Of a DNA stretch of 32,000 nucleotides, positions 14,210 through 32,000 are shown one piece after another (the stretch's first letter is position 1; each line of letters starts with the position of its first letter). Location: positions 1,530,001-1,562,000 of the forward strand of contig NC_010628.1 in NCBI RefSeq assembly GCF_000020025.1, given 5' to 3'. Under the pieces are notes generated by a model. It searched no databases. It was not told where the DNA came from and saw only the letters and a program-made list of their open reading frames with translations. The position numbers and the translations under genes were made by a program. The DNA comes from Nostoc punctiforme PCC 73102. GTDB lineage: Bacteria; Cyanobacteriota; Cyanobacteriia; Cyanobacteriales; Nostocaceae.

Positions 14210-14296
14210 GGGAATTGGGAATTGGGCATTAGTTATATTTCCTCTGCTTCCCCTGCCTCCCCTGCTCCCTACTCCCTACTCCCTTCCCCCTGCCTC
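14210..14296. repeat. STRR-like short tandem repeats between the convergent regulator and AAA ATPase genes
   Basis: GGGAATT GGGAATT GGG at 14210-14226. Then a C-rich array, CTGCTTCCC CTGCCTCCC CTGCTCCCT ACTCCCT ACTCCCT TCCCCCT, at 14241-14296. The apparent + strand ORF 14121-14306 is just this repeat read as P/L-rich text. Confidence 0.75.
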
Positions 14297-16285: not shown

Positions 16286-17322
16286 TTGGATATAGCGATG
16301 TGGATACAATCATTAGAAGATTTTATCAAACATAGCCAGGATAAACGTGAAATTATACGAGCAATGGCAGTCAAGATGCTGCTGTGTGGATATAAACACA
16401 AGGAGATAATGCCAATTTTGGGTGTTTCGTCAGGCTTTATAAGTACATGGAAAAAAGCATTTTTTCAAAACGGAGTTGAGGGTTTAAAGTTAGCATATAA
16501 AGGAAGCAAAGGATTTTTGGATACACAACAACATAAGGCTGTGATTGAATGGTTGCAAACGAAGGAGCAATGGACTTTTAATGAGTTGGAGTACCAGCTT
16601 GTATCTAAGTATGGAGTGATATTTGAGTCTAAACGAAGTTACTATGATTTGTTTAATGAAGCACGTATTAGTTGGAAAAAAGCTCAAGCTAATAATCCAA
16701 AGCATGACCCGGAATTAGTCGCCTCAAAAAAAAAGAAATTTGTGAATTGTTGGAGACGAGACGAGCCGAAATTGAGTCGGGAGAGCTAGTTGTCTTCATG
16801 ATTGATGAATGCCACTTACTCTGGGGAGATATAATAGGATATATCTGGGGTAAAATGAGCGAGCGCATTTCAATTCCAGTTGTCAATGCTCGTGATAAAC
16901 AGACATACTTCGGTGCGTTAGACTATAAAACGAAAGAATTTCTCACCCATACTGCCAATAAAGGGAACTCGGAAAACACAATTGCTTTTTTGGAGTATCT
17001 CCGCTCACAACGTCCAGGTGCAAAACTTTTAATCATTTGGGATGGCGCTAGTTATCATCGCTCGCAACAGATCAAAGATTATTTAGACTCTTTGAATACT
17101 AACTTAGACAAAGAAGAATGGTTGATAACTTGTGAAAGATTTGCCCCGAATGCACCTCAACAAAATCCTGTAGAAGATATTTGGTTGCAAGGGAAAAGAC
17201 TGATTCGAGAGTTTTATTTTTTTTGTCATTCCTTCTCTATTGTCAAGGCTTTTTTTGAGTTATCACTTAATTGTCAAATTTTTAACTTTCCTAAGCTCCA
17301 TGAATATGGTGTTTTCTCATGA
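16286..17322 (+). CDS. IS630-family transposase, orfA (HTH) and orfB (DDE) joined by a -1 programmed frameshift
   Basis: orfA 16286-16789 is an HTH/winged-helix-like N-terminus. orfB is open from 16708 to 17322 and carries the DDE triad contexts FMIDECH, IIWDGASYH and QQNPVEDIW. The two frames overlap by 82 nt around an A9G run. Confidence 0.85.
16729..16735 (+). other. A_AAA_AAG -1 ribosomal frameshift heptamer of the transposase
   Basis: In the orfA frame the codons are TCA AAA AAA AAG AAA. The heptamer A AAA AAG at 16729-16735 is the classic X_XXY_YYZ slippery motif. A shift to -1 reads ...KKK EICELLETRRAEIESGELVVFMIDECH, continuous with orfB. Confidence 0.7.
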
Positions 17323-17339
17323 ACTATTTAGGATTGCTA

Positions 17340-18341
17340 TAGGATAAACTTTCACGTCATCAAAACTAATAACAACTCGTTCTGGATTGATCTGCTGTTC
17401 ATTTTCACATTTACCTATAGCCATCGCAACTCGTCCCCAATTCGGATCTGCCCCATAGACGGCGGTTTTTACTAATGGTGAATTGACAATTGCTTTAGCT
17501 ACTTTTTTCGCTTGTACATAGTTAATAGCTGAATCTACAGTCACCTCAATAATTTTGGTGGCACCTTCTGCATCTCTGGCAATTTTCAGCACCAATTCTT
17601 GTGCAACTTCTTGCAATGCGCTGGCAAAATCCGCCTCTGAAACTTCACCGGCTATTCCATTAGCTAGAATCACGGCGGAGTCACTAGTAGAAGTGTCAGT
17701 GTCTACACTCAAGCAGTTAAAGGTTTTATCTATAGTAGAGCGAAAAATAGAACGAAGGCTATTTGCAGAAATTGCCGCATCAGTAAAAAAGAAAGTTAAG
17801 AGAGTAGCCATATTAGGCTCAATCATGCCAACACCTTTGGCAATTCCTACCAGCTTGGCATTTCCTACTTGTCGTGTAGCTAGTTTTGATACTGTATCGG
17901 TGGTCATAATACCACGGGCTGCGGCATTAAAATCAGCAGGAGTCAATTTTTTGCCCAATCCTAATAAACCTGCTCGAATTTTTTCAATCGGGTAACGCCT
18001 GCCAATTACGCCTGTAGAAGCTATCACCATATTATGTGCAGCAATTCCAGTTTCAGTTGCAACTAATTGTAAAACTTCTTGGGCATCAGCAATGCCAACT
18101 GCACCATTAGCGACATTTGCATTCTTAGATATAACGACAATTCCTTGTACTTGTGAATCTTTTAAGTTGTCGCGGCTAATAGTAACACTTGGCCCGGCGA
18201 AAAGACTTTGAGTGAAGACTCCATCAGCAACACAAGGAACTTCTGATTTAATAAATACAAAATCATCAGTTGTATCGCGTATTCCTAAATTAGTAATAAA
18301 TGCGCTAAAACCTTGGGTGCAGAAGATATAGTTAATGCCAT
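17340..18341 (-). pseudogene. argJ: argJ paralogue (ornithine acetyltransferase / N-acetylglutamate synthase), N-terminal approximately 330 codons, interrupted by IS630
   Basis: The track ORF 17317-18030 (MVIASTGVIGRRYP...PNMATLLTFFFTDA... with the autoprocessing T motif) extends upstream in frame to ...GFSAFITNLGIRDTTDDFVFIKSEVPCVADGVFTQSLFAGPSVTISRDNLK... The only ATG (18341-18339; MALTISSAPKV...) is in a different frame. The 3' end reads into the IS (…VYPIAILNSS*). Confidence 0.8.
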
Positions 18342-19255: not shown

Positions 19256-20911
19256 TTATTCAAAAACATTGCTTTGCTCCTTTCCAATATTTAAATATTC
19301 AGTTTTCACTTGGCCGTATTCCAGCTTGACAATCCGATCTGCCAGGTAAAAATATTGGTCATCGTGACTAATAACTAGTACAGTTTTTCCTCTCTTCTTT
19401 AGCTCTACCAGAAGTTGAGTATAGAAAATTTCCTTGAATACAGGATCTTGATCTGATGCCCACTCATCAAACATATAAATGGGACGATCTTCTAAATAAG
19501 CAGTAACTAGAGCGAGACGTTTGCGCTGTCCTTGAGAAAGGTCCGTGGTAGAAAGTACTCCATTATTGACCTTAACTTTATGGTCTAATTGCAATTCAAT
19601 AAGGTACTTTCGAGTCTGAATATCCAGATCGCCACTATCCAAACCCAGGAAGCGATCAAAAAGATAAAAATCGGAAAATACTACAGAAAATTGCTGTCTA
19701 TACCACTCTAAATTATGATTATCAATGAGCTGATCGTCTAGATAAATATTTCCTGTTTCAGGAATGTAAAGCCCACTAATTAACTTAGCGAGGGTAGACT
19801 TACCACTACCGTTACCTCCTACAATAAAAACAAGTTCTCCTGGATGAAATTTTAATTTAATAGGCCCAAGGATAAAGTTGCTTTCTTCCCGTTCTTGATA
19901 ATAAGCATGGGTTATATTTACCAGTTCTAAGCAGTTCCAATATTGATCTGATGCCAGTGAAACATTATCACAAATTTCGTTTGAATAACTTGCTAATGAT
20001 AGACCCAGAGACTCCACTTTTTTTAAAGCTACTAAGGCTTTAGTTATGCTAGGCATCATACTCATAATATACTCTAGAGGTGATATCAAATAGATAATAG
20101 TTAGGGCATAAGCAGATAGAATTGCAGGTGGAATTTTATTGATAGTAGGGATGATGAATAAAAGTAACCCAATAGCAACAAAAAATAGAACTTGCCCCCA
20201 ACTAGCAGCCGCAGCAAAGATACTCATACCCACAACATTATGACGGCGGAATGATGAAGCAGTGGTATGGAGTTCTTCAGAGAGAAATGCTTGCCGTCGT
20301 CGGCGATGTAGTTTGAGTTCTTTTGTGCCTTGAATGACGCTACGGAAATGCTTAAATAATCTATCTTCTTGCTCACGAGCCAATTTTAAAAAAGACATGG
20401 CTTTCATCATTGGTAGTGAATAGCTGAATATTCCCAGGAACATAAAGCTAATACCTATGAGGAAAACAATTTTAGATAACCAACTCAGATAAATCAGACA
20501 GGCAATCACGATGGCAATATTAATGCACACAAAAGGGACAGTAATAACTGTGTTAGAGATTGTTTGAATATCCTCAGTGAGAACAGCTAAAAGTCCATGA
20601 GCACCTATTTGTTCTAAGTGACGTAAGGGCGAGGCAAGAATACTGCGGGTTAAAAGTACCCGCAAATTGAGAATTGCTTTTTGTGAAAGTTGTATCAATA
20701 AAACTTGAGAAACGAAATTAGCAATTAACCGCAGTAAACAAAGACCGACAAAACTCCAAATTAGTATAGTTTTTGATGGCTGATTTTGACTCAATGTCGT
20801 ATTAATTAGGGCAATTAGACCAGCAGCAGTGCCGCCGCTGAAAATACCAGCTAAAATTGCAAAACAGAGCTGAAGAGAAGAAGTACGCAATAGAAGACGG
20901 ATCAGGTTCAT
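19256..20911 (-). CDS. Cyclic-peptide/siderophore-type ABC exporter (fused permease and ATPase)
   Basis: 551 aa. Six-TM N-terminal half. Walker A GGNGSGKST, signature LSQGQRKRLA, Walker B PIYMFDEWASDQD. Size and layout match the SyrD/PvdE-like cyclic peptide transporter family. Confidence 0.85.
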   Translation of the reverse strand: MNLIRLLLRTSSLQLCFAILAGIFSGGTAAGLIALINTTLSQNQPSKTILIWSFVGLCLLRLIANFVSQVLLIQLSQKAILNLRVLLTRSILASPLRHLEQIGAHGLLAVLTEDIQTISNTVITVPFVCINIAIVIACLIYLSWLSKIVFLIGISFMFLGIFSYSLPMMKAMSFLKLAREQEDRLFKHFRSVIQGTKELKLHRRRRQAFLSEELHTTASSFRRHNVVGMSIFAAAASWGQVLFFVAIGLLLFIIPTINKIPPAILSAYALTIIYLISPLEYIMSMMPSITKALVALKKVESLGLSLASYSNEICDNVSLASDQYWNCLELVNITHAYYQEREESNFILGPIKLKFHPGELVFIVGGNGSGKSTLAKLISGLYIPETGNIYLDDQLIDNHNLEWYRQQFSVVFSDFYLFDRFLGLDSGDLDIQTRKYLIELQLDHKVKVNNGVLSTTDLSQGQRKRLALVTAYLEDRPIYMFDEWASDQDPVFKEIFYTQLLVELKKRGKTVLVISHDDQYFYLADRIVKLEYGQVKTEYLNIGKEQSNVFE

Positions 20912-21008
20912 AAGTAATTAACAACCCACAGCATTCGTTCTGACGCGAAGAGTTTTCTTAAAGAGTAATTAAGCAGATATGTACAACTCACAGACTTTCG
21001 TTATTTGC

Positions 21009-22298
21009 CTACCTATTAACTACCTGTGCAGCACCTTTTACCTCCAGTTTTTTCGATGCTCCAACATGCTGATAAAGTTTTTCTTCAAATTTTTCCATAC
21101 ACGCCGACCAATCAAATTTTTGTATGTAGAGGCGAGCCTGTCGAGACATTTCTTCTTTTAGAGCCGGATTTTCTAGAATCGCAATCACCTTCATAGCGAA
21201 ATCTTTTGGGTTGTTAGGTTCAGCTAGGAAGCCGTTGCGACCAGAGGAAGAGGATATCTGCTCTGAAGTTGAAGGCGCAAGGACCGCAACTACAGGGGTT
21301 CCAGAAGCCAGCGCTTCGTTAGTTGTGGTGCAAAAGTTTTCGGTGACGGAGGCATTGACAAATACATCTGCTCGCGCAAACCAGCCCAAAAGTTCTGTAC
21401 CGTGAGACTCACCCCAAACCGTAATACCAGATTCAAACTTTTTGGCACGCCGACGGATCTCTTTATCCTGGGGACCACTACCAACAATCACTAAATGGAC
21501 ATCAGGAATTTTGGCAGCAATGAGCACAAATGCATCTAGGAGTTGCTTGACGTTCTTTTCTGCACTAATGCGTCCGACAAACAACAGAGTGGGTCGTTGA
21601 TCGCCAGGAATAGGGTCATAACAAATATTTCGGGGATGAAATTTTTCGCAATCAATTCCTTGATAGGGAAGATATTCTAGACGTTGGGCTGCCAGCAATT
21701 TGTACTTGGTGAGTTGTTCTTGGGAAGAAAAGTAATTAACATCATAAGCCTCACTCAATTGCTTAATTAAAATGGGAATGATCGGACGAATAAATCTAAA
21801 AGCCCACTCTCCTATGTAATATCGAATATAAGCAACTATATCGGTATGGAATATAGATATTATTGGTGTGCCTGTTCGCTTTGTGTATTCAGTGCCAATA
21901 GGGCGACCATAACCTTGCAAAAAAAGTGAATAGTAACCGATCATTCCTGGCGCTTCTTCAACCACCACAATGTCAGGCTGAAAATTTAATAACAGCTTGG
22001 TATCACTCCAATATCGATAGTGCAATGGTTCGGGAAGAGACTTGTAGAATATCATTGGTTTGCTTGGGTAAGCATAAGAAGAAAAGTTGGAGAAAGACTG
22101 AACTTCCTCCAGCCTTAACATGGGGCGATCGCGAACTTCTTTGGGGTACAGATAATTGACTCCAGGATGGATCAGAAAGACTTCATGTCCCTGCTGTAGC
22201 AACCAGCGAACACGCTGGTGTACTCCCATAGAAACCCCCGACATAAACGGAGCATATAATGCTGTAAAAATCGCAATACGAAGAGGTTGTTTATTCAT
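21009..22298 (-). CDS. Glycosyltransferase family 4 (retaining GT-B)
   Basis: 429 aa. N-terminal IAIFTALYAPFMSGVSMGVHQRVRWLLQQGHEV. C-terminal domain with LLFVGRISAEKN and the E-x7-E motif ENFCTTTNEALASGTPVV. Confidence 0.85.
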   Translation of the reverse strand: MNKQPLRIAIFTALYAPFMSGVSMGVHQRVRWLLQQGHEVFLIHPGVNYLYPKEVRDRPMLRLEEVQSFSNFSSYAYPSKPMIFYKSLPEPLHYRYWSDTKLLLNFQPDIVVVEEAPGMIGYYSLFLQGYGRPIGTEYTKRTGTPIISIFHTDIVAYIRYYIGEWAFRFIRPIIPILIKQLSEAYDVNYFSSQEQLTKYKLLAAQRLEYLPYQGIDCEKFHPRNICYDPIPGDQRPTLLFVGRISAEKNVKQLLDAFVLIAAKIPDVHLVIVGSGPQDKEIRRRAKKFESGITVWGESHGTELLGWFARADVFVNASVTENFCTTTNEALASGTPVVAVLAPSTSEQISSSSGRNGFLAEPNNPKDFAMKVIAILENPALKEEMSRQARLYIQKFDWSACMEKFEEKLYQHVGASKKLEVKGAAQVVNR

Positions 22299-22329
22299 GG
22301 TCTAATACTTGATATCTATGTATGATGCT

Positions 22330-22722
22330 TTAACACTTGGGATGAAAACTTTCTAAATCAACTACGGTGATTAAATTATCTTTTGGATGTCTGTTTTTCT
22401 CAGCTATTCCTGTATGCGCTGCATCCCCTCGAAAGATGCACAAAGGTTTTGACACAGCATTCTTAGCAGCTTTAGCTATATTGACAGTGCTCCTAACATT
22501 TACCTCATGAAAATGGTCAATTGACCCACCTTCTTTAGCTAGTTCAGCCGTATGTGTAACTACATCTACTGCCTGACAAGCCATTTGGGCAGTAGCTGGA
22601 TTAGTAACACTACCAACAATCACCTCAACACCGAGTTTTTGCGCTTTTTTAGCTTTATCCGAGAAATTTTGTAGTCCACGGACTTTCATTCCCTTTGCTA
22701 TAGCTAACTCAGCAAAACGCAA
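22330..22722 (-). pseudogene. NAD-dependent epimerase/dehydratase (extended SDR) fragment, probably decayed
   Basis: 130 aa from a TTG start. It resembles only the first third of an SDR (KGMKVRGL...LGVEVIVGSVTNP...VDVVTHTAEL...FHEVNVRSTVNIAKAAK). The upstream in-frame sequence reads IIIIEINGFIS where the GxxGxxG motif should be. The catalytic YxxxK region is missing. Confidence 0.55.
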
Positions 22723-22919
22723 GCTGATAAATCCATTAATTTCTATAATGATAATAGTTTGGTTTTCGATTTTTACAGATTTAATCTACAACTTTACTGT
22801 TGGTACAAGTTCAGGTGTTTTCTCCACTTGTTACATATATAGCAAAAGTCATTTGAATACTACCTAAAAATCTCATTAGCTTGTGATTTATAAGTATATT
22901 ATGACAGCAAGATACTCAA

Positions 22920-22952
22920 TTGCAACTCAAATGCAACTCATACGCAACTCGA
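22920..22952. repeat. Tandem 11-bp repeat, 3 copies
   Basis: TTGCAACTCAA ATGCAACTCAT ACGCAACTCGA, in the 466-bp gap between the docking-domain protein gene and the SDR fragment. Confidence 0.6.
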
Positions 22953-23188
22953 TCAATACTTGAATAATTTTTTGTAAAGATTAAAAAGTCATCCGTATAA
23001 AAATGCTAGAAATAACGCTTTAGCATTTTTATGTGAATGACCTAAGCTTATTATTGATTAGATGCTTTAGCTTTGCTGTCTCATACCCTACTTTTAAAGC
23101 TTGCTACGCGCACGTGTTCCGCAGCAAAGAGAATCATGCTTTGCAATTCTTGGTTAAACAGTAAGAATTAAAAGCCTCTTTCACAAAT

Positions 23189-25066
23189 TTAGACTCTACA
23201 TTCTTCTACCTTCGATCTCAGAGAAGCAAAATGTTTTCCACCTAATTCAATTTGCCCTTCTGCACACCCAGTTTTCAATCTTTCGACTAAATAATCCAAA
23301 TCATGAGCTATAAAATTTGTGCCATGATCTGGTTCTACTAAACTAACTAAAGATATATTTCTAGCTTGTTGTTCGACCAAGCTAGAAATACCCAGAAAGT
23401 TAAATACACCAGATTCATAGGTTCCACAAGGTACCGAAGGATTATTTACTCCAACACAGTATTCATTTGGTTTAAACCAATCAAATGCTGGGTAGCCGTG
23501 AAAATGAACAATTGGCGCACCATTTTTAATTAATTCTGGTGTATACAAAGCCGCAGAAAGACTAATCGCAAGCATGACATAAATATCATAAGAAGGTTTC
23601 ATATCTGCTAATTCCGAACGAATCACTTTAGGAAGTTGGAGATATAGCTTTTCTTTCAACCCAATTCTGATAATATCGTCAGCGATATTCAAGTCTGTTT
23701 TATTTGACCCTGAACGAGAACTTACAAGCCAAATATCGGGGATTTGTCTAAATACATATTTTTCTAATATTTTGATTTTGACATAGCGTCTACCATTTTC
23801 ATTTTGACGAAGTTCGTTACTACTAAATCCCTTAACAGGTAGTAGACTTTCCCACTCTTTTTTAGTTACTTCTACATCTCCAAAATATTGTGGAGGTTCA
23901 GCATAAGCAACAAAGCCATAAGAGACACCTGTTCTACCATTTATGATGACGCTGACAATATCTCTATGGGATTTTCTTTTAATCACTTCATTCAATTTAA
24001 AACCAGGAGGGAATAAACCTGTTGATGCCAATTCCTGACCCAATTTCACTAATTTTGCAGCATAGCTAGATTCTTGAGGATTATACTGTCCTAGCTCAAA
24101 TCGGCTCAGTAAAAGTGGGGCAATCGGCACAAAAACTTTAGGTATTAGCGATTTTAAGACAAACCTTTCTATCTCGCTCCTGGAAAAAATAGAGTCTGAA
24201 AGATTCATATTTAGTATAGAAATTTTATTAGATGATACTCCAATAACTACTTCGGAAAATGTTCTAATTAAAGTGTTTATTCCAATATTTATTTTTTGTT
24301 TATATGGAATAGCAGGGTTAATAAAATCATGGTCTATGTCAGTAATTACAATCACTTGCGTTTTGCTAGGGTTGTCAACATATTTAGCTGCATGATCTTC
24401 AGCCCAACTGCTTAATCTAGCTATTTTTATCACAGGTATTTTTCGCTCGTTTAAGATAAATTGAGAATAAATTTTGTAGAGGATTTCTGCTACGAATATA
24501 CCCAATTTTCTCAAAAAGGAAGGAGGGATTTCTACATCAATAATTGCGTTAACTTCTGACTTAACTCCCTTGAATTTAAAGTTTCTCTTTTTGTTAATTA
24601 CCGGGATTATTAGATCATATTTGAATTCTGCGATCGCTTCATCCCAAGATAAAACTTTGACACCATAATCTCTCAGTTTAACTTCCAACTCTTGGCGAAA
24701 TTTCCGAATTTCTTGATTATTGTAGCTATTAGGCAAAGGTTTAAATGTAACTATCAACTTCTGAGCCATAGCTTTAGTATCAATAATTGGCGACTTATAT
24801 TCTACAGTTGATTGCTCTGAAAAACCTCCAATTAAACGACCAATAGTTTGTAAATTTAGTCCTTGACTTAAAGGGACTGAATTTAAGTCGGAAGCTACAT
24901 CCATCTCATGCAGAAATGCCACAATATCTGCTTTGTAAGCAGCTATTTTTGCTTGCATATCTAATGTAATTAATCCCTTTGGTGAGCGAATCCTTAACTT
25001 GTCGTTATCAACCCATAAATGAACACCTTGTTGAGTAAGGTTTGCTACAAGCTCTGATGCGTTCAT
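23189..25066 (-). CDS. Protein with a TubC-type N-terminal docking domain fused to an unrecognised domain of about 560 aa
   Basis: 625 aa. Residues 1-55 (MNASELVANLTQQGVHLWVDNDKLRIRSPKGLITLDMQAKIAAYKADIVAFLHE) fit the beta-beta-alpha-alpha NRPS/PKS docking-domain pattern L..L...GV.LW.EGD.LR..APKG.LT.EL...L...K.EI..FL. The remainder has no A, C, KS, MT, TE or other motif I can identify. Confidence 0.7.
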   Translation of the reverse strand: MNASELVANLTQQGVHLWVDNDKLRIRSPKGLITLDMQAKIAAYKADIVAFLHEMDVASDLNSVPLSQGLNLQTIGRLIGGFSEQSTVEYKSPIIDTKAMAQKLIVTFKPLPNSYNNQEIRKFRQELEVKLRDYGVKVLSWDEAIAEFKYDLIIPVINKKRNFKFKGVKSEVNAIIDVEIPPSFLRKLGIFVAEILYKIYSQFILNERKIPVIKIARLSSWAEDHAAKYVDNPSKTQVIVITDIDHDFINPAIPYKQKINIGINTLIRTFSEVVIGVSSNKISILNMNLSDSIFSRSEIERFVLKSLIPKVFVPIAPLLLSRFELGQYNPQESSYAAKLVKLGQELASTGLFPPGFKLNEVIKRKSHRDIVSVIINGRTGVSYGFVAYAEPPQYFGDVEVTKKEWESLLPVKGFSSNELRQNENGRRYVKIKILEKYVFRQIPDIWLVSSRSGSNKTDLNIADDIIRIGLKEKLYLQLPKVIRSELADMKPSYDIYVMLAISLSAALYTPELIKNGAPIVHFHGYPAFDWFKPNEYCVGVNNPSVPCGTYESGVFNFLGISSLVEQQARNISLVSLVEPDHGTNFIAHDLDYLVERLKTGCAEGQIELGGKHFASLRSKVEECRV

Positions 25067-25131
25067 GGTTTTAGAATCTCCTATTTTTTTAAATATTGGT
25101 TTGTCAGTCTATGAATTGAAAAATGAATATC

Positions 25132-26466
25132 CTAGTTATGCATAAAACTAGAGTCTAAATTTAAATTGCAAATGTCAAAAATATAAGACATAACATTGTT
25201 TACAAGAAGATCCATAGTACCCTGACTGATTGAAGGTTGAGAAAAAACAAAATTTAACAGCATTTTTCCTTGAAAAGTTGAGGCGTGGATAACAAAAACA
25301 CCTGCATACAAAGCGTGGGAACCAGCGAAACTGATTTCTTCTAGTTCAAATTCACCGTAATATTTGGGTATATTTACTTTGCCAACATTAGAAACAGACA
25401 CTGTGGCAGCTACTTGCTTGGGATAGATAAAACAAAAATCTATGAGATGCTTGGCAATCAAAATCATTTTAAAGAGATCGCCGGATTTTTTACTAACTTC
25501 AAGTTTTTGTTTCACCTCACGGGCTAATTCCCAAAAAGACGTGTTTCTCCCTATAGTATGAAATTCCATAATAGAGGAGGCTAATACAGCCATCTGATCA
25601 TCACTGATTGCTGGTTCTAGGTGTCTCCTCAAATCAAAATATGATAGGCAGTTTACTCGTGCATTTTTGCTATTATCTTTAATTATTTTTCTCCCTATTG
25701 TAAACATCAGTACAGCACACAAAGCACTATGTACTGTTGTATTTTCTTGCCGACAATGATTTACAAATTTTTGGGTTAAGTCTTCGTCAAGTTGTCTGTG
25801 GATAATATTGCAACTACGCTTTTCAATAGATACGTACTTTTCAAAACCTAATGTTTTTGGTCGATTCCAGATTTTTTGTAACCCAAGCTGCAACAAGAAG
25901 ATAATGCTATTTATCCTACCTCTAAATCCCTTAGTCCATTTGGGCATTAGTTCTTCGATAGGTGGAAGTGGAGTTAAGCTAATAACTGGATTAATTGGTT
26001 TGCCAGATACAATTTTTTGACAACAAGTCAAGATTTCTGAGTGAAGTTGGATGGATGACAAACCATCTGCGATCGCATGGTGTATTGTTGTAATTAGGTA
26101 ACTTACATGCTGATCGCCCAAAAGATGAATAAGAACAACTCGCAGTAAACCTTTGCTACTATCAATTCCGTTGTTCATCTCTTCATCAACCACTTCTTGC
26201 CACTGCTCATTGTCTAACTTTTTGACAACGCGTAAAGCAATATTTGCTATTTCTTGACTTTGAAAGATAAGACTATTTTTATCTCCAGTAATTTTAGAAT
26301 TTAGACGAGGGTGGCGACATTGGATTACGTCTAAAGCCTGTGTCAGAGTTTCTTCGCAGATATAGCCATTGATGCGACTAATAGTTACTATGTTCCAGGT
26401 TTTAGCACGGCTATTTAAGATTTCCATAGCTTGCTCAAGGTGTCCCAGCTTTCTGTTGTAAATCAT
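25132..26466 (-). CDS. Stand-alone condensation-domain-family acyltransferase (HHxxxDG)
   Basis: 444 aa. Active-site motif TTIHHAIADGLS about 130 aa from the N-terminus. Size and layout resemble free C domains and PapA5/WS-DGAT-like enzymes. Confidence 0.8.
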   Translation of the reverse strand: MIYNRKLGHLEQAMEILNSRAKTWNIVTISRINGYICEETLTQALDVIQCRHPRLNSKITGDKNSLIFQSQEIANIALRVVKKLDNEQWQEVVDEEMNNGIDSSKGLLRVVLIHLLGDQHVSYLITTIHHAIADGLSSIQLHSEILTCCQKIVSGKPINPVISLTPLPPIEELMPKWTKGFRGRINSIIFLLQLGLQKIWNRPKTLGFEKYVSIEKRSCNIIHRQLDEDLTQKFVNHCRQENTTVHSALCAVLMFTIGRKIIKDNSKNARVNCLSYFDLRRHLEPAISDDQMAVLASSIMEFHTIGRNTSFWELAREVKQKLEVSKKSGDLFKMILIAKHLIDFCFIYPKQVAATVSVSNVGKVNIPKYYGEFELEEISFAGSHALYAGVFVIHASTFQGKMLLNFVFSQPSISQGTMDLLVNNVMSYIFDICNLNLDSSFMHN

Positions 26467-26648
26467 ATTTACTTTTGGTTCCCTCTAATGATTGATTATT
26501 TGCAAGCTTAATTCTTGATTTAGGTTGTAATTATTGTTCGATAACCTGTAAAATCTTTTGAGTAAGCCTTGCTAAAAACCTGGATATATTCATAGTTTCA
26601 AACTATCAAAATCTTTTTCTATAAGCTGTTCGTGAACAGCTTTGATGT

Positions 26649-26954
26649 TCAAATCTCAAAAATCTCTGACTGCGAAGCTTTGGATTCTTCCGCTAAACGC
26701 TGGGATAACGTTTCAATAGTGGGGTAATGCCACAATAAAATTGGAGATAGCTCAAAACCAAACAACTTCTCGGCTTTGCTAACAAGAAACATTGCCTGGG
26801 CTGACTCTAAACCGTAGCTGTCTAAAGGTTGACTAACATCTATATCCTTGGATTCAACTCCTAGCTGCTCTGCAATATGAGATACTAACCAAGCTTGAAT
26901 TTCTTCTGCGGTATAAGACTGCTTTTTAGTTGTCTCAGGAGTAGACTGACTCAT
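26649..26954 (-). CDS. Discrete acyl/peptidyl carrier protein
   Basis: 101 aa. [70 protein letters not shown] fits the PKS-type ACP pattern. The phosphopantetheine Ser lies in GLES, a variant of GLDS. Confidence 0.85.
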
Positions 26955-27163
26955 TTACACACCTCTGAAGTGAAAGGAATAAGATATATGGCATTCCTAA
27001 ATAGGATATGAACAGGCTATAATTTTTGTTCACAGCTTAGATAGGATTGCTGTACTGGCTAAAATTTTGAAAAGTTTAAGGTAGGAGATATTAGAAAAAA
27101 GTTTTACTTTTGCTACTGCTGCATATCTCCTAAGCGCATATCGAGCTACGTGACATTTATCAA

Positions 27164-27463
27164 TTAATCAGCCACCCGAATGCGAATATCACCCTGCACT
27201 ACGCATTGACAGGCTAGGCGAACATTGGGATTATCTGGAGCCAACACATCAAGTAAAATCTGCTCTTCATCCATCACAGGAGTTAGATTTTCTATCCCAC
27301 TCACAACTTCTATAAGACAGGTTCCGCAAGCAACACAACGACAACCAAATAAAATTGAACTAGGATGTTCATCACAAATCTTAGTTAAGCGTTGGTTTGC
27401 TTCGACTTGAAGTGTTTTTTGGTCGTCTTCAAAATGAATAGATACTATCATTTTTAAACTCAC
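27164..27463 (-). CDS. Plant-type 2Fe-2S ferredoxin
   Basis: 99 aa. Cluster ligands are C41-x4-C46-x2-C49 (GCRCVACGTC) plus C84 (RLACQC), which is the canonical spacing. Confidence 0.85.
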   Translation of the reverse strand: MSLKMIVSIHFEDDQKTLQVEANQRLTKICDEHPSSILFGCRCVACGTCLIEVVSGIENLTPVMDEEQILLDVLAPDNPNVRLACQCVVQGDIRIRVAD

Positions 27464-27500
27464 TAGTGTCAGGAAAGAGGGTTAGCAGATTTAGCAACCC

Positions 27501-28799
27501 TTAGGCTACTTCAACAACTTTTTGAATTTCCTTAATTGCCAAAGCATCCTTGTAACGCTCATAGCGATTACCTAGCTTACTTGTATTTAACTCCAATCCC
27601 AATGCCTTTATCAGACGCTCTAGCTGCTGAGATTTGTATTGCCAACTCTTTTGTTCCATGTAACCAATTATATTGCGCCACTTTGAACTCACCTGTCTCC
27701 AAGAATTAACTAATTGATTTATATCCGCTTGCTTATCAGCTAATTCAGGATGGTGCAGAGACATACTTAGTGAGTTCAGCCCAACTCTAATATCAGTTAG
27801 CATGATTCCTTGCACAGTGAGGTCTAATTTCTCCAAATAAGTAGTGTAACTAGCACTAATATAGTCTTCCACAATTAGCTGCATGAAATATCGAACGAAA
27901 TCCTGAGCCTCTGGAGGAGCTACCCTATACAGTTCTACTCCTAAATCAAAAGATGTTGTGTAATGACGTGCTTCATCTGTTAAGTGGCCTTGATTCAATT
28001 CAAAAGCTAATGGTTCATAATCAAACTTTTCAGGTGAATCAAATAAATAGGCTTCGCTTTTTTTTAACTCCACGTTAGCCATGTACCGATACAGCAGAGT
28101 TAAGCTACCCAAGCCATTTTCTTGAACTTTTTCGGCGGGTAGCATCCTCATGGCATCCCCAATCATAAACCTTAAATTTCGATATGTAAAATTTTGGCCT
28201 CGTTGCTGCGTCTGTTCTACAATCTTTTTAAGAAAGCTTTTCCCCTTTTGAAGATTCAACAGAGTTTCATTTAAATCTTCATCAAAAGTAAAACGGGTAT
28301 CGAAGTTTTCAAAATCTGATTGAGGTATTGCACCAACAGAACCATAGAAAAAACCAGGCTCATCAAAGGAGCTTTGAATTCCTATTTCTCGGCAGACCAT
28401 ACTATATACGGTTCTAAAAGACCAAATATGATCCATTTCTTCATTAGTTTCCTGGTGAAGAATCATAAATTCGTCCGAGTAGGAAGCAAAAACTTTTTCA
28501 GCAATACTCATATTGGATATAAGAGACTGATATTCGCTATTGGCAACATACTTGTAGAAGTTAGCAAAAAATGTCGCAGATAAAATTGACATTTGACGAG
28601 CATTAAAAGAAAATAAATACTCACAAATAGGTATGGGTAAGGGTAGCATTCCTGGATGAGAGTAAAGTTTTTCTCCTTTAATTCCCTGCTTGCTCATAGC
28701 TATAGCAACAGTTTTTAATTCTAAAGGCTGAGTATGTGCCTGCTCGAAAAGCTTATTTTGAATCTTGGGAATTCGGTTATCAATTTTAACAGTATTCAT
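27501..28799 (-). CDS. Ferritin-like diiron-carboxylate enzyme (AurF/CylC-like superfamily; oxygenase, desaturase or halogenase)
   Basis: 432 aa, predicted helical. Two ExxH motifs about 160 aa apart (NEEMDHIW and TDEARHYT), each preceded by a candidate carboxylate-bearing helix (ANSEYQSL; ANVELKKSE). Sits 14 nt downstream of the PfaD-type gene and 37 nt upstream of the ferredoxin gene. Confidence 0.65.
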   Translation of the reverse strand: MNTVKIDNRIPKIQNKLFEQAHTQPLELKTVAIAMSKQGIKGEKLYSHPGMLPLPIPICEYLFSFNARQMSILSATFFANFYKYVANSEYQSLISNMSIAEKVFASYSDEFMILHQETNEEMDHIWSFRTVYSMVCREIGIQSSFDEPGFFYGSVGAIPQSDFENFDTRFTFDEDLNETLLNLQKGKSFLKKIVEQTQQRGQNFTYRNLRFMIGDAMRMLPAEKVQENGLGSLTLLYRYMANVELKKSEAYLFDSPEKFDYEPLAFELNQGHLTDEARHYTTSFDLGVELYRVAPPEAQDFVRYFMQLIVEDYISASYTTYLEKLDLTVQGIMLTDIRVGLNSLSMSLHHPELADKQADINQLVNSWRQVSSKWRNIIGYMEQKSWQYKSQQLERLIKALGLELNTSKLGNRYERYKDALAIKEIQKVVEVA

Positions 28800-28813
28800 C
28801 TGATTTTCCTCCT

Positions 28814-30475
28814 TTAATTAAAAGTAACTGGACGATATTCGCTGTAATAAGCGGGCATTTGTAAGCCCTGAACTTTTAAACTTTGTATCCGGTATAAAAA
28901 TGCTGCTCCGGTCATAATATGGTTAGCAACATCAACTACCTGACGATTATTTGATTCAGATAAGTAAGAACCTCTAACCCAGTCATTGAAACTGCCCATA
29001 GCAGGGCCACACCAGATTTGATAATCCATTTCTCTGCCTTTTTCACCAAAGTTAGACCAACGGGATGATAATCCAAGATACCAGCGAAAAATTAAAGCCA
29101 TCTTCAGTTTGGGATTATTAACAGCCTTGGCCAATTTATCAGGATTGCGTTGAGATAAATAAGTAACTGTCTCTTGCCACACTGCATCCAAGCTCTTTTT
29201 CAAAACTTGTTTTTCTAATTTATCTCTTTCCACTAAGGGAATATCTTCAATTGAGTCATAGTTTTTGTATAGTTCAAACATTTTTTGGGCTCGTAAAGGA
29301 AAGAGAGTTCCTCTTTTGAGTACTTGGAGTTTTACCCCCATTTCAAACATATCTGCTGCCGGAGCCATCATCACATCAGCCATCTCGGCTTGAGCCAATA
29401 ATTGTTTAGTATGTTGAGAAGTTCCGGCTTCAATGCAAGACTGGTTAATCGAGCCTGTTACAACATAAGCAGCACCCATCATAAAGGCAGCTAATGCTGA
29501 TTGTGGCGTAGCAATTCCTCCTGCTACTCCGACTCTGACAGGTTTTTCATAAGAAAATTTCCTTTGAATTTCATCTCTCAATTCTAAGATGGAAGGTAAG
29601 AGACAAACTAGAGGACGATTATCTGTATGACCACCAGAATCTGCTTCGGCAGTAATATCGTCAGCTACAGGAATTTTTTCAGCTAGAGTTGCTTGTAATT
29701 CACTGATAAGACCTTGCTCAACTAATTGCTTCAAAATTTTTGTTGGAGCAGGTTGCAGAAATTTGATTGCAACTTCTCTCCGAGAAACTTTGGCTATAAT
29801 TTTATTTTTGATTTCGATTTTATTGTCCGCATTCAAACTAAGTCCAGCAGCGCGGTAGTAAACAATGTTGTCAGTCAAATCGAGGAAGGCGGAAGCTTCT
29901 ATTGTTCTCACCTGATATTTAAGATACAAATCAACAACACCGCGTTCAATAGCAGGCTCACTAGGACTGTGGAGTAAGTTAAATGCGTAAGGTCCTTCGG
30001 GTAAAGCTTGCTGAATACGCTTAATGGCTGCTTCGACCCGAGCAGGAGATAAGCCACCAGCACCAAATGAACTTAAAATTTTCTCTTTGCCAAGGGCAAT
30101 TACCAGTTCTTCAGAAGCAATCCCTTGAGCCATTGCGCCCGTGGCATAAGCGTATTTTACACCATGAAATTTGAGAAAAGTTGAATCGCCTAATTGCCGA
30201 GTTGACAGAGGTGGAGTAGATACTAATATTTCTGCCTGTCCTGTTTTTCCTTGGTTGCAAGGATATAGATAACCTTCGTTAGTTGCACCAACTTTTCCTT
30301 CAACTCTAATAATATAACAAGGCTTTTCTAAATTTAGAAGCTTAGATTTTATGCCTTTTTCGTTAAAAGATACAAAATCTAAAATACCTTGCCAAACTTG
30401 ATTTTGTTGGGAAATATAGTCTGAAATTTTTAGGTAGTTACCATTGTTATTTAGTATATTATCTGCACCAATCAT
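28814..30475 (-). CDS. PfaD-family trans-acting enoyl reductase (nitronate-monooxygenase fold)
   Basis: 553 aa. Characteristic PfaD blocks: FHGVKYAYATGAMAQGIASEELVIALGKEKILSSFGAGGL, AFNLLHSP, SGGHTDNRP, and the C-terminal extension WYLGLSSRWS. Confidence 0.85.
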   Translation of the reverse strand: MIGADNILNNNGNYLKISDYISQQNQVWQGILDFVSFNEKGIKSKLLNLEKPCYIIRVEGKVGATNEGYLYPCNQGKTGQAEILVSTPPLSTRQLGDSTFLKFHGVKYAYATGAMAQGIASEELVIALGKEKILSSFGAGGLSPARVEAAIKRIQQALPEGPYAFNLLHSPSEPAIERGVVDLYLKYQVRTIEASAFLDLTDNIVYYRAAGLSLNADNKIEIKNKIIAKVSRREVAIKFLQPAPTKILKQLVEQGLISELQATLAEKIPVADDITAEADSGGHTDNRPLVCLLPSILELRDEIQRKFSYEKPVRVGVAGGIATPQSALAAFMMGAAYVVTGSINQSCIEAGTSQHTKQLLAQAEMADVMMAPAADMFEMGVKLQVLKRGTLFPLRAQKMFELYKNYDSIEDIPLVERDKLEKQVLKKSLDAVWQETVTYLSQRNPDKLAKAVNNPKLKMALIFRWYLGLSSRWSNFGEKGREMDYQIWCGPAMGSFNDWVRGSYLSESNNRQVVDVANHIMTGAAFLYRIQSLKVQGLQMPAYYSEYRPVTFN

Positions 30476-30571
30476 CTTTTTTAACCTCCAGTTCCAGAAA
30501 ATTGTTTACCAGATAATGTTTGAAGAATTTACAGCAGATTTTATACTGATTACCTGTGAGGTTGCTCTAGA

Positions 30572-30593
30572 ACAAGGGGCTTAAGCCCCTTGT
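30572..30593. other. Perfect GC-rich palindrome/hairpin between the PKS-like gene and the pfaD-like gene
   Basis: ACAAGGGGC TTAA GCCCCTTGT, a 9-bp stem with a 4-nt loop, about 70 nt downstream of the PKS-like stop. No U-run follows on the transcribed strand. Confidence 0.5.
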
Positions 30594-30660
30594 CTTACTA
30601 AACTTGATTGTGTACCAATTATTTATTCAAATAATCTGGTTACTTTGCTGCTTTAAATGA

Positions 30661-32000
30661 TTATGATTCAAATAACTTTTGATAACAAGCTATTTGCAAC
30701 TGAATGATGACGCTAATTTGCTTTAGTGACTCCTGTCGTGCTTGTAAAAAGACAGCATGAGCTTTGGTCATCCTGGAAGCGTTCTCACTCAGCTTTTGAT
30801 AGTAAGGACTGTGTAAATTGAGCAAATTGGTTTCGTCAACAATGCTGGATGTTTTCAAACTAGGGGTCAAAGCGAATTGATTATTTTCCTGTTCTGTTAC
30901 CAAATTTTCGTTAATTTGTAATTTTTCTACACTTTCATTGCGTTCTTGTAACAATAACTGAGTAGGTTGGCTGCTATTTTGAAAGTTAACTTGCTCTTGG
31001 AGACTTTCTAGATTTCTAGAGGTGTTTTCAAGACTTTTGGTAGGATTAGAGAGCAAAGAAGAATTCATTTTTGGAAATTCCTTTAATTCTGATAGTTGAG
31101 ATTGCTGCTGATTAACAGTTTTGATGGGATATCTAAAAGAGATATCTTGAAGGATTTCTTGATTTTTTTTATTCAAAGATGTGTAACTAATCTTGGTATT
31201 GTCCAAGGTTATAGTTTTCACACTAGGTTGGCTTTGGTTGAAAATTTCTGGCTCTTGAGAATATAGTGGTGATAAATCCAGATCAACTCTGTGGCTGAGG
31301 AGTTTGGCTAAAGCTTTGATAATAGAAGCATGATCGTCTACACCTCTTTTATTAAGAGACACTGTGATGTGTTCTTTTGCATTAAGGGTTTTATCAATCC
31401 ATCTAGAACAGTTACTACCAGCACCTACTTCGAGGAATATTTTGAAGCCATCTTCATAGACGCGATTAATTAGCTGAGGAAAATTAAGCTGTTGACAGAG
31501 ATTTTGAGCAATATTGTGAGCAATAGAATGGCTATCAAGGTCAATGGGTTTATACTCAGCTGCGGAATAGAAAATAGTCTCTGGGATGTTTCGGCTAGGT
31601 AATGTATTTAATCTCACAAGTTCATCGTACTCAGAGCGCATTGCCTCGCAATGAATTACATGGGTGAAGGGAGCAGAAAAAGCATTACAATTTAGGCTAG
31701 CGATAACTCGCTGACAGGCTTGGATTTCACCAGCGATCGCAACTTCTTCTGTAGTGTTAATTAAAGGCAAATAGACGCGGTTTTCATATTTGATAGTTTC
31801 CTGAACGCGGGATACTGGACACATGAGAATATAATTGCGCCAAAAATCTTCGCCTTGTTGATTCTGCTCTTGAGGTAATCCCCAATACTCGCGCACAGCA
31901 TTTTTTTCACCAGATAGCCTTGTCTTCAGCAGAGATGATGAGTTAAAGCCCTCGCTACCTTCTTGAAACTGAGTCCAGACACCCTGAGCCAACATCATAC
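30661..32000 (-). CDS. C-terminal part of a PUFA-synthase/PKS-like multidomain protein: PfaB-type acyltransferase half-domain plus a Q/N/S-rich tail. The gene continues past the right edge.
   Basis: The frame is open to position 32000. The first approximately 255 aa in the window resemble the C-terminal half of an AT domain (…AIAGEIQACQRVIASL…SAPFTHVIHCEAM…FLEVGAGSNCSRWI…). The last approximately 190 aa are low complexity, ending AHAVFLQARQESLKQISVIIQLQIACYQKLFES. Confidence 0.7.
   Translation of the reverse strand, partial: MMLAQGVWTQFQEGSEGFNSSSLLKTRLSGEKNAVREYWGLPQEQNQQGEDFWRNYILMCPVSRVQETIKYENRVYLPLINTTEEVAIAGEIQACQRVIASLNCNAFSAPFTHVIHCEAMRSEYDELVRLNTLPSRNIPETIFYSAAEYKPIDLDSHSIAHNIAQNLCQQLNFPQLINRVYEDGFKIFLEVGAGSNCSRWIDKTLNAKEHITVSLNKRGVDDHASIIKALAKLLSHRVDLDLSPLYSQEPEIFNQSQPSVKTITLDNTKISYTSLNKKNQEILQDISFRYPIKTVNQQQSQLSELKEFPKMNSSLLSNPTKSLENTSRNLESLQEQVNFQNSSQPTQLLLQERNESVEKLQINENLVTEQENNQFALTPSLKTSSIVDETNLLNLHSPYYQKLSENASRMTKAHAVFLQARQESLKQISVIIQLQIACYQKLFES

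Follow-up and report, generated by a model that had tools for sequence, protein, structure and literature searches.

In the heterocyst-glycolipid (hgl) system the acyl chain is released reductively by HglB, in which an acyl carrier protein (ACP) is fused to a thioester reductase. Clusters encoding CylC-type di-metal enzymes have been catalogued as 95 biosynthetic gene clusters (BGCs) in seven architectures, among them an orphan 'nitronate monooxygenase-containing' class (n = 3), found only in LEGEcc Nostocales, which also encodes type I polyketide synthase (PKS I), ferredoxin, ACP or glycosyltransferase (Eusébio et al. 2021, BMC Genomics 22:633, PMC8406957). The present analysis concerns a cluster of ten open reading frames (ORFs) on the minus strand of Nostoc punctiforme PCC 73102, running from position 19256 to the edge of the 32,000-nucleotide stretch analysed (NC_010628.1, positions 1,530,001 to 1,562,000; hereafter the window, whose coordinates are used throughout). 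With a probability of about 0.6 it is read as an hgl-paralogous secondary-lipid cluster, in which chain synthesis of the polyunsaturated fatty acid (PUFA) synthase type would be combined with release by a 625-aa docking-domain protein (Dock625), tailoring by a CylC-like enzyme, acyl transfer and export.

Family assignments come from Pfam and NCBIfam model scans of the window proteins at curated cutoffs. The cluster features, with ketosynthase (KS), acyltransferase (AT), short-chain dehydrogenase/reductase (SDR) and ATP-binding cassette (ABC) abbreviated, are:

30661-31998, minus strand: predicted HglC-like KS(Q)-AT gene, 3' part; last 445 codons of a 1101-aa gene (TIGR02816 pfaB_fam, 92 bits, below cutoff)
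28814-30475, minus strand: pfaD, trans enoyl reductase (TIGR02814, 665.8 bits, cutoff 449; PfaD_N, NMO and FabD_helical_ins Pfam matches)
27501-28799, minus strand: CylC-like di-iron enzyme, 432 aa (PF28091 CylC-like in the precomputed Pfam table; two ExxH motifs)
27164-27463, minus strand: 2Fe-2S ferredoxin (Fer2; C-x4-C-x2-C...C pattern; GTG start at 27463)
26649-26954, minus strand: discrete ACP (PP-binding; C-terminal tail ...SQSEIFEI)
25132-26466, minus strand: PapA5-type stand-alone condensation-fold acyltransferase, the C gene (Condensation and PapA_C; HHAIADG)
23189-25066, minus strand: Dock625, 625 aa (TubC_N docking domain, 64.9 bits, no other domain match)
22456-22776, minus strand: extended-SDR remnant, first 109 codons, dN/dS (ratio of nonsynonymous to synonymous substitution rates) 0.44
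22330-22722, minus strand: ORF spanning the SDR remnant, 130 aa (weak SDR family matches; continues into unrelated sequence)
21009-22298, minus strand: GT4 glycosyltransferase (Glycos_transf_1, 112 bits)
19256-20911, minus strand: SyrD-type (cyclic-peptide-type) ABC exporter, permease and ATPase fused (TIGR01194, 514 bits, cutoff 286)

The ORF listing and the family scans agree with an earlier, sequence-only reading as regards the gene set, the ten collinear ORFs on one strand and the short gaps, which are of 14 nt between pfaD and the di-iron gene, 37 nt between the di-iron gene and the ferredoxin gene (GTG start at 27463) and 65 nt between the C gene and Dock625. The exception is the gene cut by the window edge, which had been called a megaprotein and is actually a 1101-aa HglC-like protein, the PfaA-like megaprotein (2372 aa) being found further upstream, outside the window.

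Synthase core and its relation to the hgl loci

The exact window PfaD protein was traced on Logan contigs, among them the window strain's own contig (L001). On it the full edge-cut gene encodes 1101 aa, with a C-terminus identical to the window fragment, and displays a KS-like domain in which the active-site Cys is replaced by Gln (LIAEQNS at 173), followed by an AT domain (GYSLGE at 649); the window edge cuts the gene just past the AT active site. Its orthologue in Nostoc sp. LEGE 12447 (L007) gives KS and AT Pfam matches, and the protein is assigned by these sequence features as HglC-like, that is, a chain-length factor (CLF)/KS(Q)-AT protein. At its C-terminus (window 30661-31250) it carries a Q/N/S-rich low-complexity tail of about 200 residues, with no domain match, which is kept in the LEGE 12447 orthologue.

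Beyond this gene, L001 shows one more (at least 974 aa), and the next upstream gene in L007 is PfaA-like, with the domain order KS-AT-ACP-KR-DH (KR, ketoreductase; DH, dehydratase) and a length of 2372 aa in the loci of relatives. A metagenome scan with the N-terminus of this PfaA-like gene brought up loci extending 9 kb further, in which devB, devC and devA stand divergent from it (TIGR02971 364, TIGR01185 467 and TIGR02982 379 bits, all above cutoffs). This linkage was found in the relatives L099, L100, L103, L107 and L113, and the same devBCA triplet also precedes canonical hgl loci. Two small conserved ORFs of 107 and 132 aa, with no family match, lie between devB and the PfaA-like gene (L099 7232-7555 and 8269-8667). 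Because the PfaA-like gene and devBCA are seen upstream in relatives, the whole cluster is estimated at about 28 kb, the window probably holding its downstream two thirds; judged from the same relatives, it runs about 17 kb past the window edge, to the PfaA-like gene and divergent devBCA. The cluster accordingly reaches beyond what the window contains, and the extension past position 32000 that had been proposed as a check, followed via L001 and relatives, completes the KS(Q)-AT gene and adds the PfaA-like KS-AT-ACP-KR-DH gene and then devBCA.

Relatives were collected by a PfaD scan of species-representative genomes. The closest genome is that of LEGE 12447, whose cluster shows 93-98% protein identity to that of the window, and next come Nostoc KVJ20 (L008), ATCC 43529 (L009), N. 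calcicola FACHB-3891 (L010) and NIES-4103 (L011). Among 80 PfaD loci, two kinds can be told apart in a tblastn matrix of the window proteins. Most are canonical hgl loci, as represented by a second locus of LEGE 12447 (L048) with the order HglE/HglG, HglC (KS-KS-AT, 1582 aa), PfaD, HglB (PP-binding and NAD_binding_4), classical SDR and HetI, in agreement with the published hgl gene order and with the 'Type F' secondary lipid synthase (Shulse & Allen 2011). The second kind shares the synthase core but has, after PfaD, a free ACP and Dock625. It was found in Fortiea, Cylindrospermum, Anabaena, Dolichospermum, Richelia, Komarekiella, Chlorogloeopsis, Fischerella, Microcoleus, Symploca and Nostoc PCC 7524, and the Dock625 cluster family includes non-heterocystous genera (Microcoleus, Symploca, Lyngbya). 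In its minimal form it consists of the PfaA-like, KS(Q)-AT, PfaD, C, ACP and Dock625 genes, with housekeeping genes (pipX, yggS, sepF, proC) immediately after them.

The PfaD-family trans enoyl reductase, together with the PfaA/HglE-like and KS/CLF-AT genes beside pfaD, gives the window cluster the make-up of an hgl/PUFA-type locus; a FabA-type dehydratase/isomerase (DH/I) domain was not found. PfaD is 98% identical to the copy in the paralogous locus L007 and 74% to the canonical hgl PfaD of L048, and the window ACP shares 62-69% identity with the ACP at the N-terminus of HglB-like genes. HglB (ACP-thioester reductase) and HetI are absent from the window and from L007-L011, both being present in L048. 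Since LEGE 12447 carries both kinds of locus, the core of the window cluster is regarded as a paralogue of the hgl synthase and not as hgl itself. The proposal that hgl synthases are the nearest analogy proves apt, considering the shared PfaA-like/KS-AT/PfaD core, the HglB-like ACP and the upstream devBCA.

Three identifications with described genes or loci were considered and not retained. The SDR is not that of hgl loci, the canonical one being a classical SDR of 267 aa and the one of the window kind an extended SDR of 331 aa. The 'NRPS-PUFA' (NRPS, nonribosomal peptide synthetase) cluster of Nostoc PCC 7524 (JACS Au 2026) was not equated with the present locus, the Nos7524_0279 locus showing the minimal core alone. 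The nocuolin noc cluster, also considered, was dropped after a literature search, without sequence comparison.

The free ACP and Dock625

In most loci the ACP gene lies directly before Dock625, and the two genes are adjacent, or have only the C gene between them, in about 20 loci (Nostoc, Anabaena, Dolichospermum, Fischerella, Chlorogloeopsis, Microcoleus, Symploca). Every ACP beside Dock625 ends in S-x-S-E-[ITF]-[FLI]-[EQ]-[ILF], and the ACPs of Dock625-free loci end otherwise. The docking domain occupies the N-terminal 55 residues of Dock625 (PF18563, cutoff 26 bits); it matches that of AerJ (8aqq) at E 2.7e-11, and its predicted model superposes on it with a TMt of 0.85 and a root-mean-square deviation of 0.8. 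From position and co-conservation we infer that the ACP tail binds this β-hairpin docking domain.

A search for Dock625 homologues returned 707 proteins, the majority with 65-90% identity and spread over Nostocales. Among the 120 listed, lengths are 618-666 aa, TubC_N is the only domain and identities are 64-90%; they include proteins of Nodularia spumigena, Anabaena cylindrica, Umezakia, Lyngbya aestuarii and an Azolla symbiont with a reduced genome. An exhaustive search of cluster representatives gave 225 relatives, including proteins of 500-565 aa, 25-33% identical, that have no docking domain. The body of Dock625 (about 560 aa) showed no Pfam, NCBIfam or PDB sequence match: PDB searches with the sequence and with a 40-member family profile matched the docking domain and not the body, and Pfam and NCBIfam scans of the distant homologues were empty. 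The Foldseek PDB matches of the full-length AlphaFold model, at a predicted local distance difference test (pLDDT) score of 73, likewise cover the docking domain alone (AerJ, Kj12, TubC).

When residues 375-625 were modelled by themselves (pLDDT 79.5), the only significant Foldseek matches were class II aldolases of the RhuA type, namely ten entries of Escherichia coli L-rhamnulose-1-phosphate aldolase (RhuA) at a probability of 0.99-1.0, at template-modelling (TM) scores of just 0.35-0.42. Profile comparison with RhaD, FucA and AraD produced one weak local match (hhalign probability 12%, 20 columns), which puts H523-G524 on the third zinc ligand of RhuA, H212-G213; 71 residues back from this weak H523/H212 match, S452-G-S454 stands where RhuA has HxH. 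Invariant across the broad Dock625 family are R378, S452, G453, K456, D464, S492, D494, H521, H523, G524, C547, E578, H581 and G582. With moderate confidence, the C-terminal domain can be described as class-II-aldolase-like with a remodelled site, from which no reaction is deduced. Since Dock625 takes the place of the HglB reductase, the HglB-type ACP being free and presumably docked to it, its most likely role is that of an ACP-docked terminal processing or release enzyme, as suggested by its position, the docking logic and the weak fold match.

Some outlying members of the family show other contexts, which also speak for a terminal role in chain assembly. In Pseudomonas huaxiensis (L090 7951-11854), a Dock625 homologue (41% identity) begins 4 nt after an AMP-binding protein gene, the pair being flanked by giant RHS/YD-repeat genes; this AMP-binding protein has, by eye, a C-terminal carrier-protein-like region (HYGLDSMAM, Pfam giving just AMP-binding) ending in ...DLEFMEV. 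In the variant P0132 (837 aa, Logan contig) the invariant HxH, Cys and ExxH residues are gone, and a thioesterase domain is fused to the C-terminus. Distant homologues that lack the docking domain come after a PlsC-type acyltransferase gene in two of three contexts, with a HisKA_7TM kinase gene next in all three; in L091 (5021-7398) and L092 (5267-7632), from unidentified bacteria and in housekeeping surroundings, such homologues overlap the end of the PlsC-type gene by 4 nt. The PlsC/HisKA_7TM context hints at a primary-lipid role of the ancestral family.

Tailoring, transfer and export genes

PF28091 matches the window di-iron protein and nearly all of its listed homologues in the precomputed Pfam tables. 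For NocO, nine residues of di-metal halogenases have been described, seven of them within QExxH and HxxDExxH, with the Gln standing for the Asp of the non-halogenating AurF and conserved across 241 CylC homologues; NocO was assayed in the same work with Fdx, Fdr and NADPH (NocO study, 2025). For comparison, the published mutagenesis primers served to reconstruct segments of NocO, and the QExxH homologues of L014, L015 and L022 were aligned directly. Eight of the nine residues are kept in the window protein (NocO E94, E129, H132, E252, H279, D282, E283 and H286 corresponding to E89, E121, H124, E249, H272, D275, E276 and H279), and the ninth is not, the signature Gln (NocO Q128) being replaced by Glu (E120). 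Position 120 is Glu in 31 of 31 aligned members of the subfamily, which counts about 62 proteins in the collection, none of them named. Single-protein and profile searches returned 58-62 subfamily members and no named CylC, BrtJ or NocO, probably owing to a word-index limit; a profile of the subfamily run against the PDB failed to pick up AurF, and the protein gave no tblastn match against plasmids.

In the rival explanation that survives best, the di-iron enzyme would be an oxygenase (a hydroxylase or desaturase, or AurF-like) oxidising the acyl-ACP by way of the ferredoxin, and the product would be halogen-free. Besides the invariant Glu at a position reported as Gln throughout the CylC homologues, this explanation is favoured by the AurF Pfam match of some subfamily members, by the occurrence of distant members as stand-alone CylC-like and Fer2 cassettes outside BGCs, and by the fact that none of the subfamily has been characterised. 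On the other side stand sister clusters of the same family, in Fischerella (L014, L015) and Moorena (L022), which encode canonical QExxH CylC homologues of 405-410 aa; the Moorena gene is followed by an orthologous ferredoxin, 74% identical to that of the window, and the Gln/Glu position is the sole difference among the nine residues between the two types (alignment A6). Moreover, the group X forward primer of Eusébio et al. 2021 matches the window at the motif, and its degenerate base spans CAA (Gln) and GAA (Glu), so that both variants were treated there as CylC homologues. Oxygenation is therefore a serious alternative but falls short of even odds, and halogenation is predicted to be somewhat the likelier of the two. 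As regards the sequence-only reading, its analogy with CylC/BrtJ-type di-metal enzymes holds; of its proposed modification of the ACP-bound chain (halogenation, hydroxylation or desaturation), CylC-family membership is in favour, halogenation being insecure in view of the Glu at the QExxH Gln.

The CylC-like and Fer2 genes occur together in only six PfaD-family loci (L007-L011 and L017), always directly upstream of the ACP gene, with the three genes contiguous in all six; distant subfamily members have no ACP nearby. Because the pair is confined to these loci and fixed upstream of ACP, while the position of the C gene varies, it is regarded as an accessory, mobile two-gene cassette insertion, with the ferredoxin as the putative dedicated electron partner of the di-iron enzyme. 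CylC-like and Fer2 pairs recur within and outside BGCs. Glu-variant cassettes outside any BGC were observed in Candidatus Cyanaurora vandensis (L088 8001-9526), and two tandem CylC-like and Fer2 cassettes lie outside a BGC beside sulfatase genes in a metagenome-assembled genome (L089 7957-11641); a Synechococcus Glu-variant copy stands alone among transposases.

The C gene product has the features of a PapA5-type enzyme (PF16911 62 bits, cutoff 30; PF00668 49.8 bits, cutoff 30.6), and its best solved relative is a phthiocerol dimycocerosyl transferase (8s6l, E 4.9e-28). Among relatives, some loci have three tandem C copies and others none. KVJ20, NIES-4103, Komarekiella and Microcoleus retain a complete SDR (331-334 aa). 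When the intact 331/332-aa SDRs of L008 and L011 were used in tblastn, residues 1-109 alone aligned in the window, which bears out the earlier description of a remnant; L009 and L010 show no SDR match in the general locus scans, the rest of the cluster being kept. GT4 starts 31 nt after the SDR-stump ORF, where two thirds of the SDR are deleted. It is full length in the window and LEGE 12447 only, a 166-aa fragment being present in ATCC 43529, and its synonymous divergence (dS) is 0.024, against 0.05-0.30 in neighbouring genes. Restriction to one lineage, location at the SDR deletion site and low dS point to GT4 as a probable recent lineage-specific insertion at the expense of the SDR.

The ABC exporter ends the cluster in L008-L010 (83-91% identity) and is absent from this position in LEGE 12447, in which an ethylene-receptor-like histidine kinase follows GT4. 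Glycosylation and export as integral steps are hence weaker than had been proposed. In L009 (20063-21445) and L010 (20122-21486), an ORF of 454-460 aa with no Pfam or NCBIfam match, absent from the window, comes after the ABC exporter gene and slightly overlaps it.

The predicted pathway and its place among known systems

In the preferred reading, the PfaA-like KS-AT-ACP-KR-DH protein, the KS(Q)/CLF-AT protein and the trans-acting PfaD would, as their homology indicates, form an iterative PUFA-synthase-type machine. Because no FabA-type DH/I was found, the chain it makes would, as in hgl, be long, largely saturated and of the hydroxy- or keto-acyl kind. The free HglB-type ACP, its tail bound to the docking domain, would present the chain to Dock625, which would stand in for the reductase by means of its class-II-aldolase-like C-terminal domain with invariant His, Cys and Glu. 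On the ACP-bound chain, the CylC-like enzyme and its own 2Fe-2S ferredoxin would modify an unactivated carbon, chlorination being the leading guess and oxygenation the alternative. The PapA5-type acyltransferase would then move the acyl chain onto an acceptor that offers a hydroxyl or amine group, and export would involve the upstream DevBCA-type exporter, as present in relatives, and the SyrD-type ABC protein. In the window strain the SDR step would be lost, and any glycosylation by the recently inserted GT4 would be late and lineage-specific.

Several points weigh against this reading. No product is assigned to the cluster, and its pathway is read from genes alone. The PfaA-like gene and devBCA are known from relatives at 89-93% identity, the strain's own DNA ending with L001, and no phosphopantetheinyl transferase was found in the window or the examined flanks. 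For Dock625, the role is drawn solely from position, docking logic and a fold match that is weak (TM 0.35-0.42; hhalign 12%), and the zinc ligands (HxH) of class II aldolases have no counterpart in the protein. With Glu in place of the signature Gln, the di-iron enzyme may not be a halogenase. Promoter and terminator scans are at chance level, giving no support for co-transcription. Finally, the SDR is lost and IS630 and a truncated argJ lie nearby, and the pathway in the window strain may be altered or incomplete.

In this reading the cluster joins two well-studied themes of cyanobacteria, heterocyst-type envelope lipid synthesis and CylC-type C-H functionalisation. The position of Dock625, the most conserved of its proteins with no assigned function, implies a new way to end a PUFA-synthase-type chain, and the Glu-for-Gln CylC subfamily offers a natural test of halogenase versus oxygenase in di-iron enzymes. 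Interest centres on which reaction Dock625 catalyses, what the Glu-variant di-iron enzyme does, and what the lipid is and serves for in the cell. A bolder proposal, tentative and with the odds against it, is that Dock625 founds a new family of carrier-protein-docked chain terminators, in which a remodelled class-II-aldolase-like domain replaces the HglB thioester reductase, and that, with the Glu-variant CylC and its private ferredoxin, it makes a new class of very-long-chain envelope lipids that are tailored oxidatively, possibly by chlorination, occur widely in Nostocales and are exported through a second DevBCA.

The possibility that the pathway of the window strain is broken or drifting, the locus being a relic, has to be weighed against the state of its genes and surroundings. 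The scytonemin genes scyA, scyB and scyC, a ScyD/E-family gene, a sensor kinase and a response regulator were identified in the window, at the distance of about 5 kb that the sequence-only reading had noted (5.1 kb from response regulator to cluster):

3657-4937, minus strand: ScyD/E-family gene, scytonemin locus
5003-5971, minus strand: scyC, scytonemin locus
5997-7058, minus strand: scyB, scytonemin locus
7418-9292, minus strand: scyA, scytonemin locus
11129-13108, plus strand: scytonemin sensor kinase (NF045595, 1094 bits)
13306-14157, plus strand: AraC-type response regulator, after the sensor kinase
14295-15497: AAA-ATPase-like ORF, possible remnant (weak partial matches alone)
16286-16789 and 16747-17322: IS630 transposase split in two overlapping ORFs
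17317-18030: truncated argJ (model positions 108-343 of 400)

This adjacency to the scytonemin genes was not seen in LEGE 12447, where the histidine kinase stands after GT4.

The cut of the SDR to 109 codons (dN/dS 0.44), the split IS630, truncated argJ and possible AAA-ATPase remnant within 5 kb, and a downstream flank unlike that of LEGE 12447 are what a relic would display. Nevertheless, the nine other genes are full length, and in comparisons with three relatives each intact gene has a dN/dS of 0.02-0.29, values which indicate purifying selection and a cluster that is probably functional rather than silent or decayed; the decay that would have undone the earlier proposal is not observed. 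The arrangement of SDR stump and GT4 is also kept in LEGE 12447, L009 and L010 retain the rest of the cluster with no SDR match in these scans, and the identical PfaD protein is listed in 79 sequence-index blocks, 23 of the contigs that carry it having been read. The intergenic gaps contain no minus-strand terminator-like site, the promoter and terminator scans being those at chance level. Altogether, a relic is considered improbable.

Several more distant relatives of the secondary-lipid cluster carry further genes, namely a StlD/DarB ketosynthase with a partner of about 315 aa and, in some, methyltransferases, a flavin adenine dinucleotide (FAD)-dependent halogenase or three tandem C paralogues, none of which was found in the window or its closest relatives. 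In Fischerella sp. PCC 9431 (L014 11727-21632), the sister cluster unites PfaD, a DarB homologue, a protein of about 305 aa that belongs to no known family and is DarA-like by position, a beta-propeller protein, the QExxH CylC homologue, a FAD (Trp-type) halogenase, ACP, Dock625 and the C gene; a single PUFA-type cluster thus holds two different classes of halogenase. A dialkylresorcinol-type (bartoloside-like) phenolic lipid, for which the PUFA-type chain would feed a DarB/DarA condensation, is conceivable from StlD/DarB (580 bits, cutoff 450) in Anabaena sp. WFMT, Chlorogloeopsis PCC 6912, Fischerella PCC 9431 and F. muscicola, where it adjoins the protein of about 315 aa and no known family that is DarA-like by position only, and from the FAD halogenase and CylC homologue of both Fischerella loci. 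For the window cluster it is very improbable, as neither DarB nor a DarA-like gene was detected by tblastn in the window and L007-L011 and the 9 kb upstream in the closest relatives hold devBCA, not darAB. Weakest of all, and refuted by gene content, is the idea that the cluster is simply hgl itself, which the PfaA-like, KS-AT, PfaD and upstream devBCA genes and a PfaD 70-79% identical to hgl PfaDs would recall, for LEGE 12447 has the separate canonical locus L048 with HglB, classical SDR and HetI, the window cluster has a CylC-like gene, ferredoxin, free ACP, C domain and Dock625 instead of HglB and HetI, and its family extends to the non-heterocystous Microcoleus, Symploca and Lyngbya.

Regarding the prior record, what matched the nitronate monooxygenase Pfam model in the class of Eusébio et al. 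2021 is PfaD, and a LEGE strain has the closest genome; the window cluster therefore adds one more member to that catalogued orphan class and is not a new kind. The statement that no characterised pathway has this combination is supported by literature searches on CylC with PfaD or nitronate monooxygenase clusters, including later work, which brought up the orphan listing alone and no product assignment. The combination itself had already been recorded as that orphan class.

The shared features with this class are a CylC homologue, nitronate monooxygenase (PfaD), PKS I, ferredoxin, ACP, glycosyltransferase, occurrence in Nostocales and no product. In the main text of that study the terms PfaD and PUFA do not occur, nor do hgl paralogy, the Dock625 family or the Gln-to-Glu change. 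Added here are the hgl paralogy including the devBCA exporter, the ACP-Dock625 pair as conserved heart of a wider cluster family, the cassette-like accessory CylC-like/ferredoxin pair, the Gln-to-Glu deviation and the apparent recent gain of GT4 at the expense of the SDR. With respect to the LEGE 12447 copy, the window has the ABC exporter after GT4 in place of the ethylene-receptor-like kinase, and its cluster abuts the scytonemin regulators.

Compared with the single enzymes described, the CylC-like protein shares PF28091, HxxDExxH and eight of nine residues with CylC/BrtJ/NocO, together with a gene adjoining that of an ACP and ferredoxin-type electron supply, but differs in the Glu for the signature Gln, an insertion of tens of residues relative to QExxH homologues (19-21% identity to those of sister clusters) and its own ferredoxin gene. 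The C gene product resembles PapA5 in HHxxxDG and PapA_C, a PapA5-like role being to esterify an alcohol with a PKS-bound long acyl chain, yet it is not an orthologue (NF006787 67 bits, cutoff 396). Dock625 has the N-terminal domain of the TubC_N docking systems (AerJ halogenase, TubC, EpoB and the Kj12 NRPS), and its partner ends, as theirs do, in a short acidic/hydrophobic tail; however, its catalytic body is of no described family and its partner is the free ACP of a PUFA-type synthase. Relative to the class II aldolases RhuA, FucA and AraD, it has no Pfam Aldolase_II match, and other residues are invariant (H521, C547, E578, H581).

The closest described system is hgl, with which the cluster has in common the iterative PUFA-synthase-type core of KS-AT-ACP-KR-DH, KS/CLF-AT and trans PfaD, without FabA-type DH/I, as well as an ACP homologous to that of HglB and, in relatives, divergent upstream devBCA. 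Unlike hgl, it has neither the HglB thioester reductase nor HetI, its HglE and HglG counterparts are fused as one 2372-aa protein, and its HglC counterpart is just a Gln-type KS and an AT (1101 aa against about 1580 aa), while it adds the CylC-like gene, ferredoxin, PapA5-type acyltransferase, Dock625, GT4 and the SyrD-type ABC exporter.

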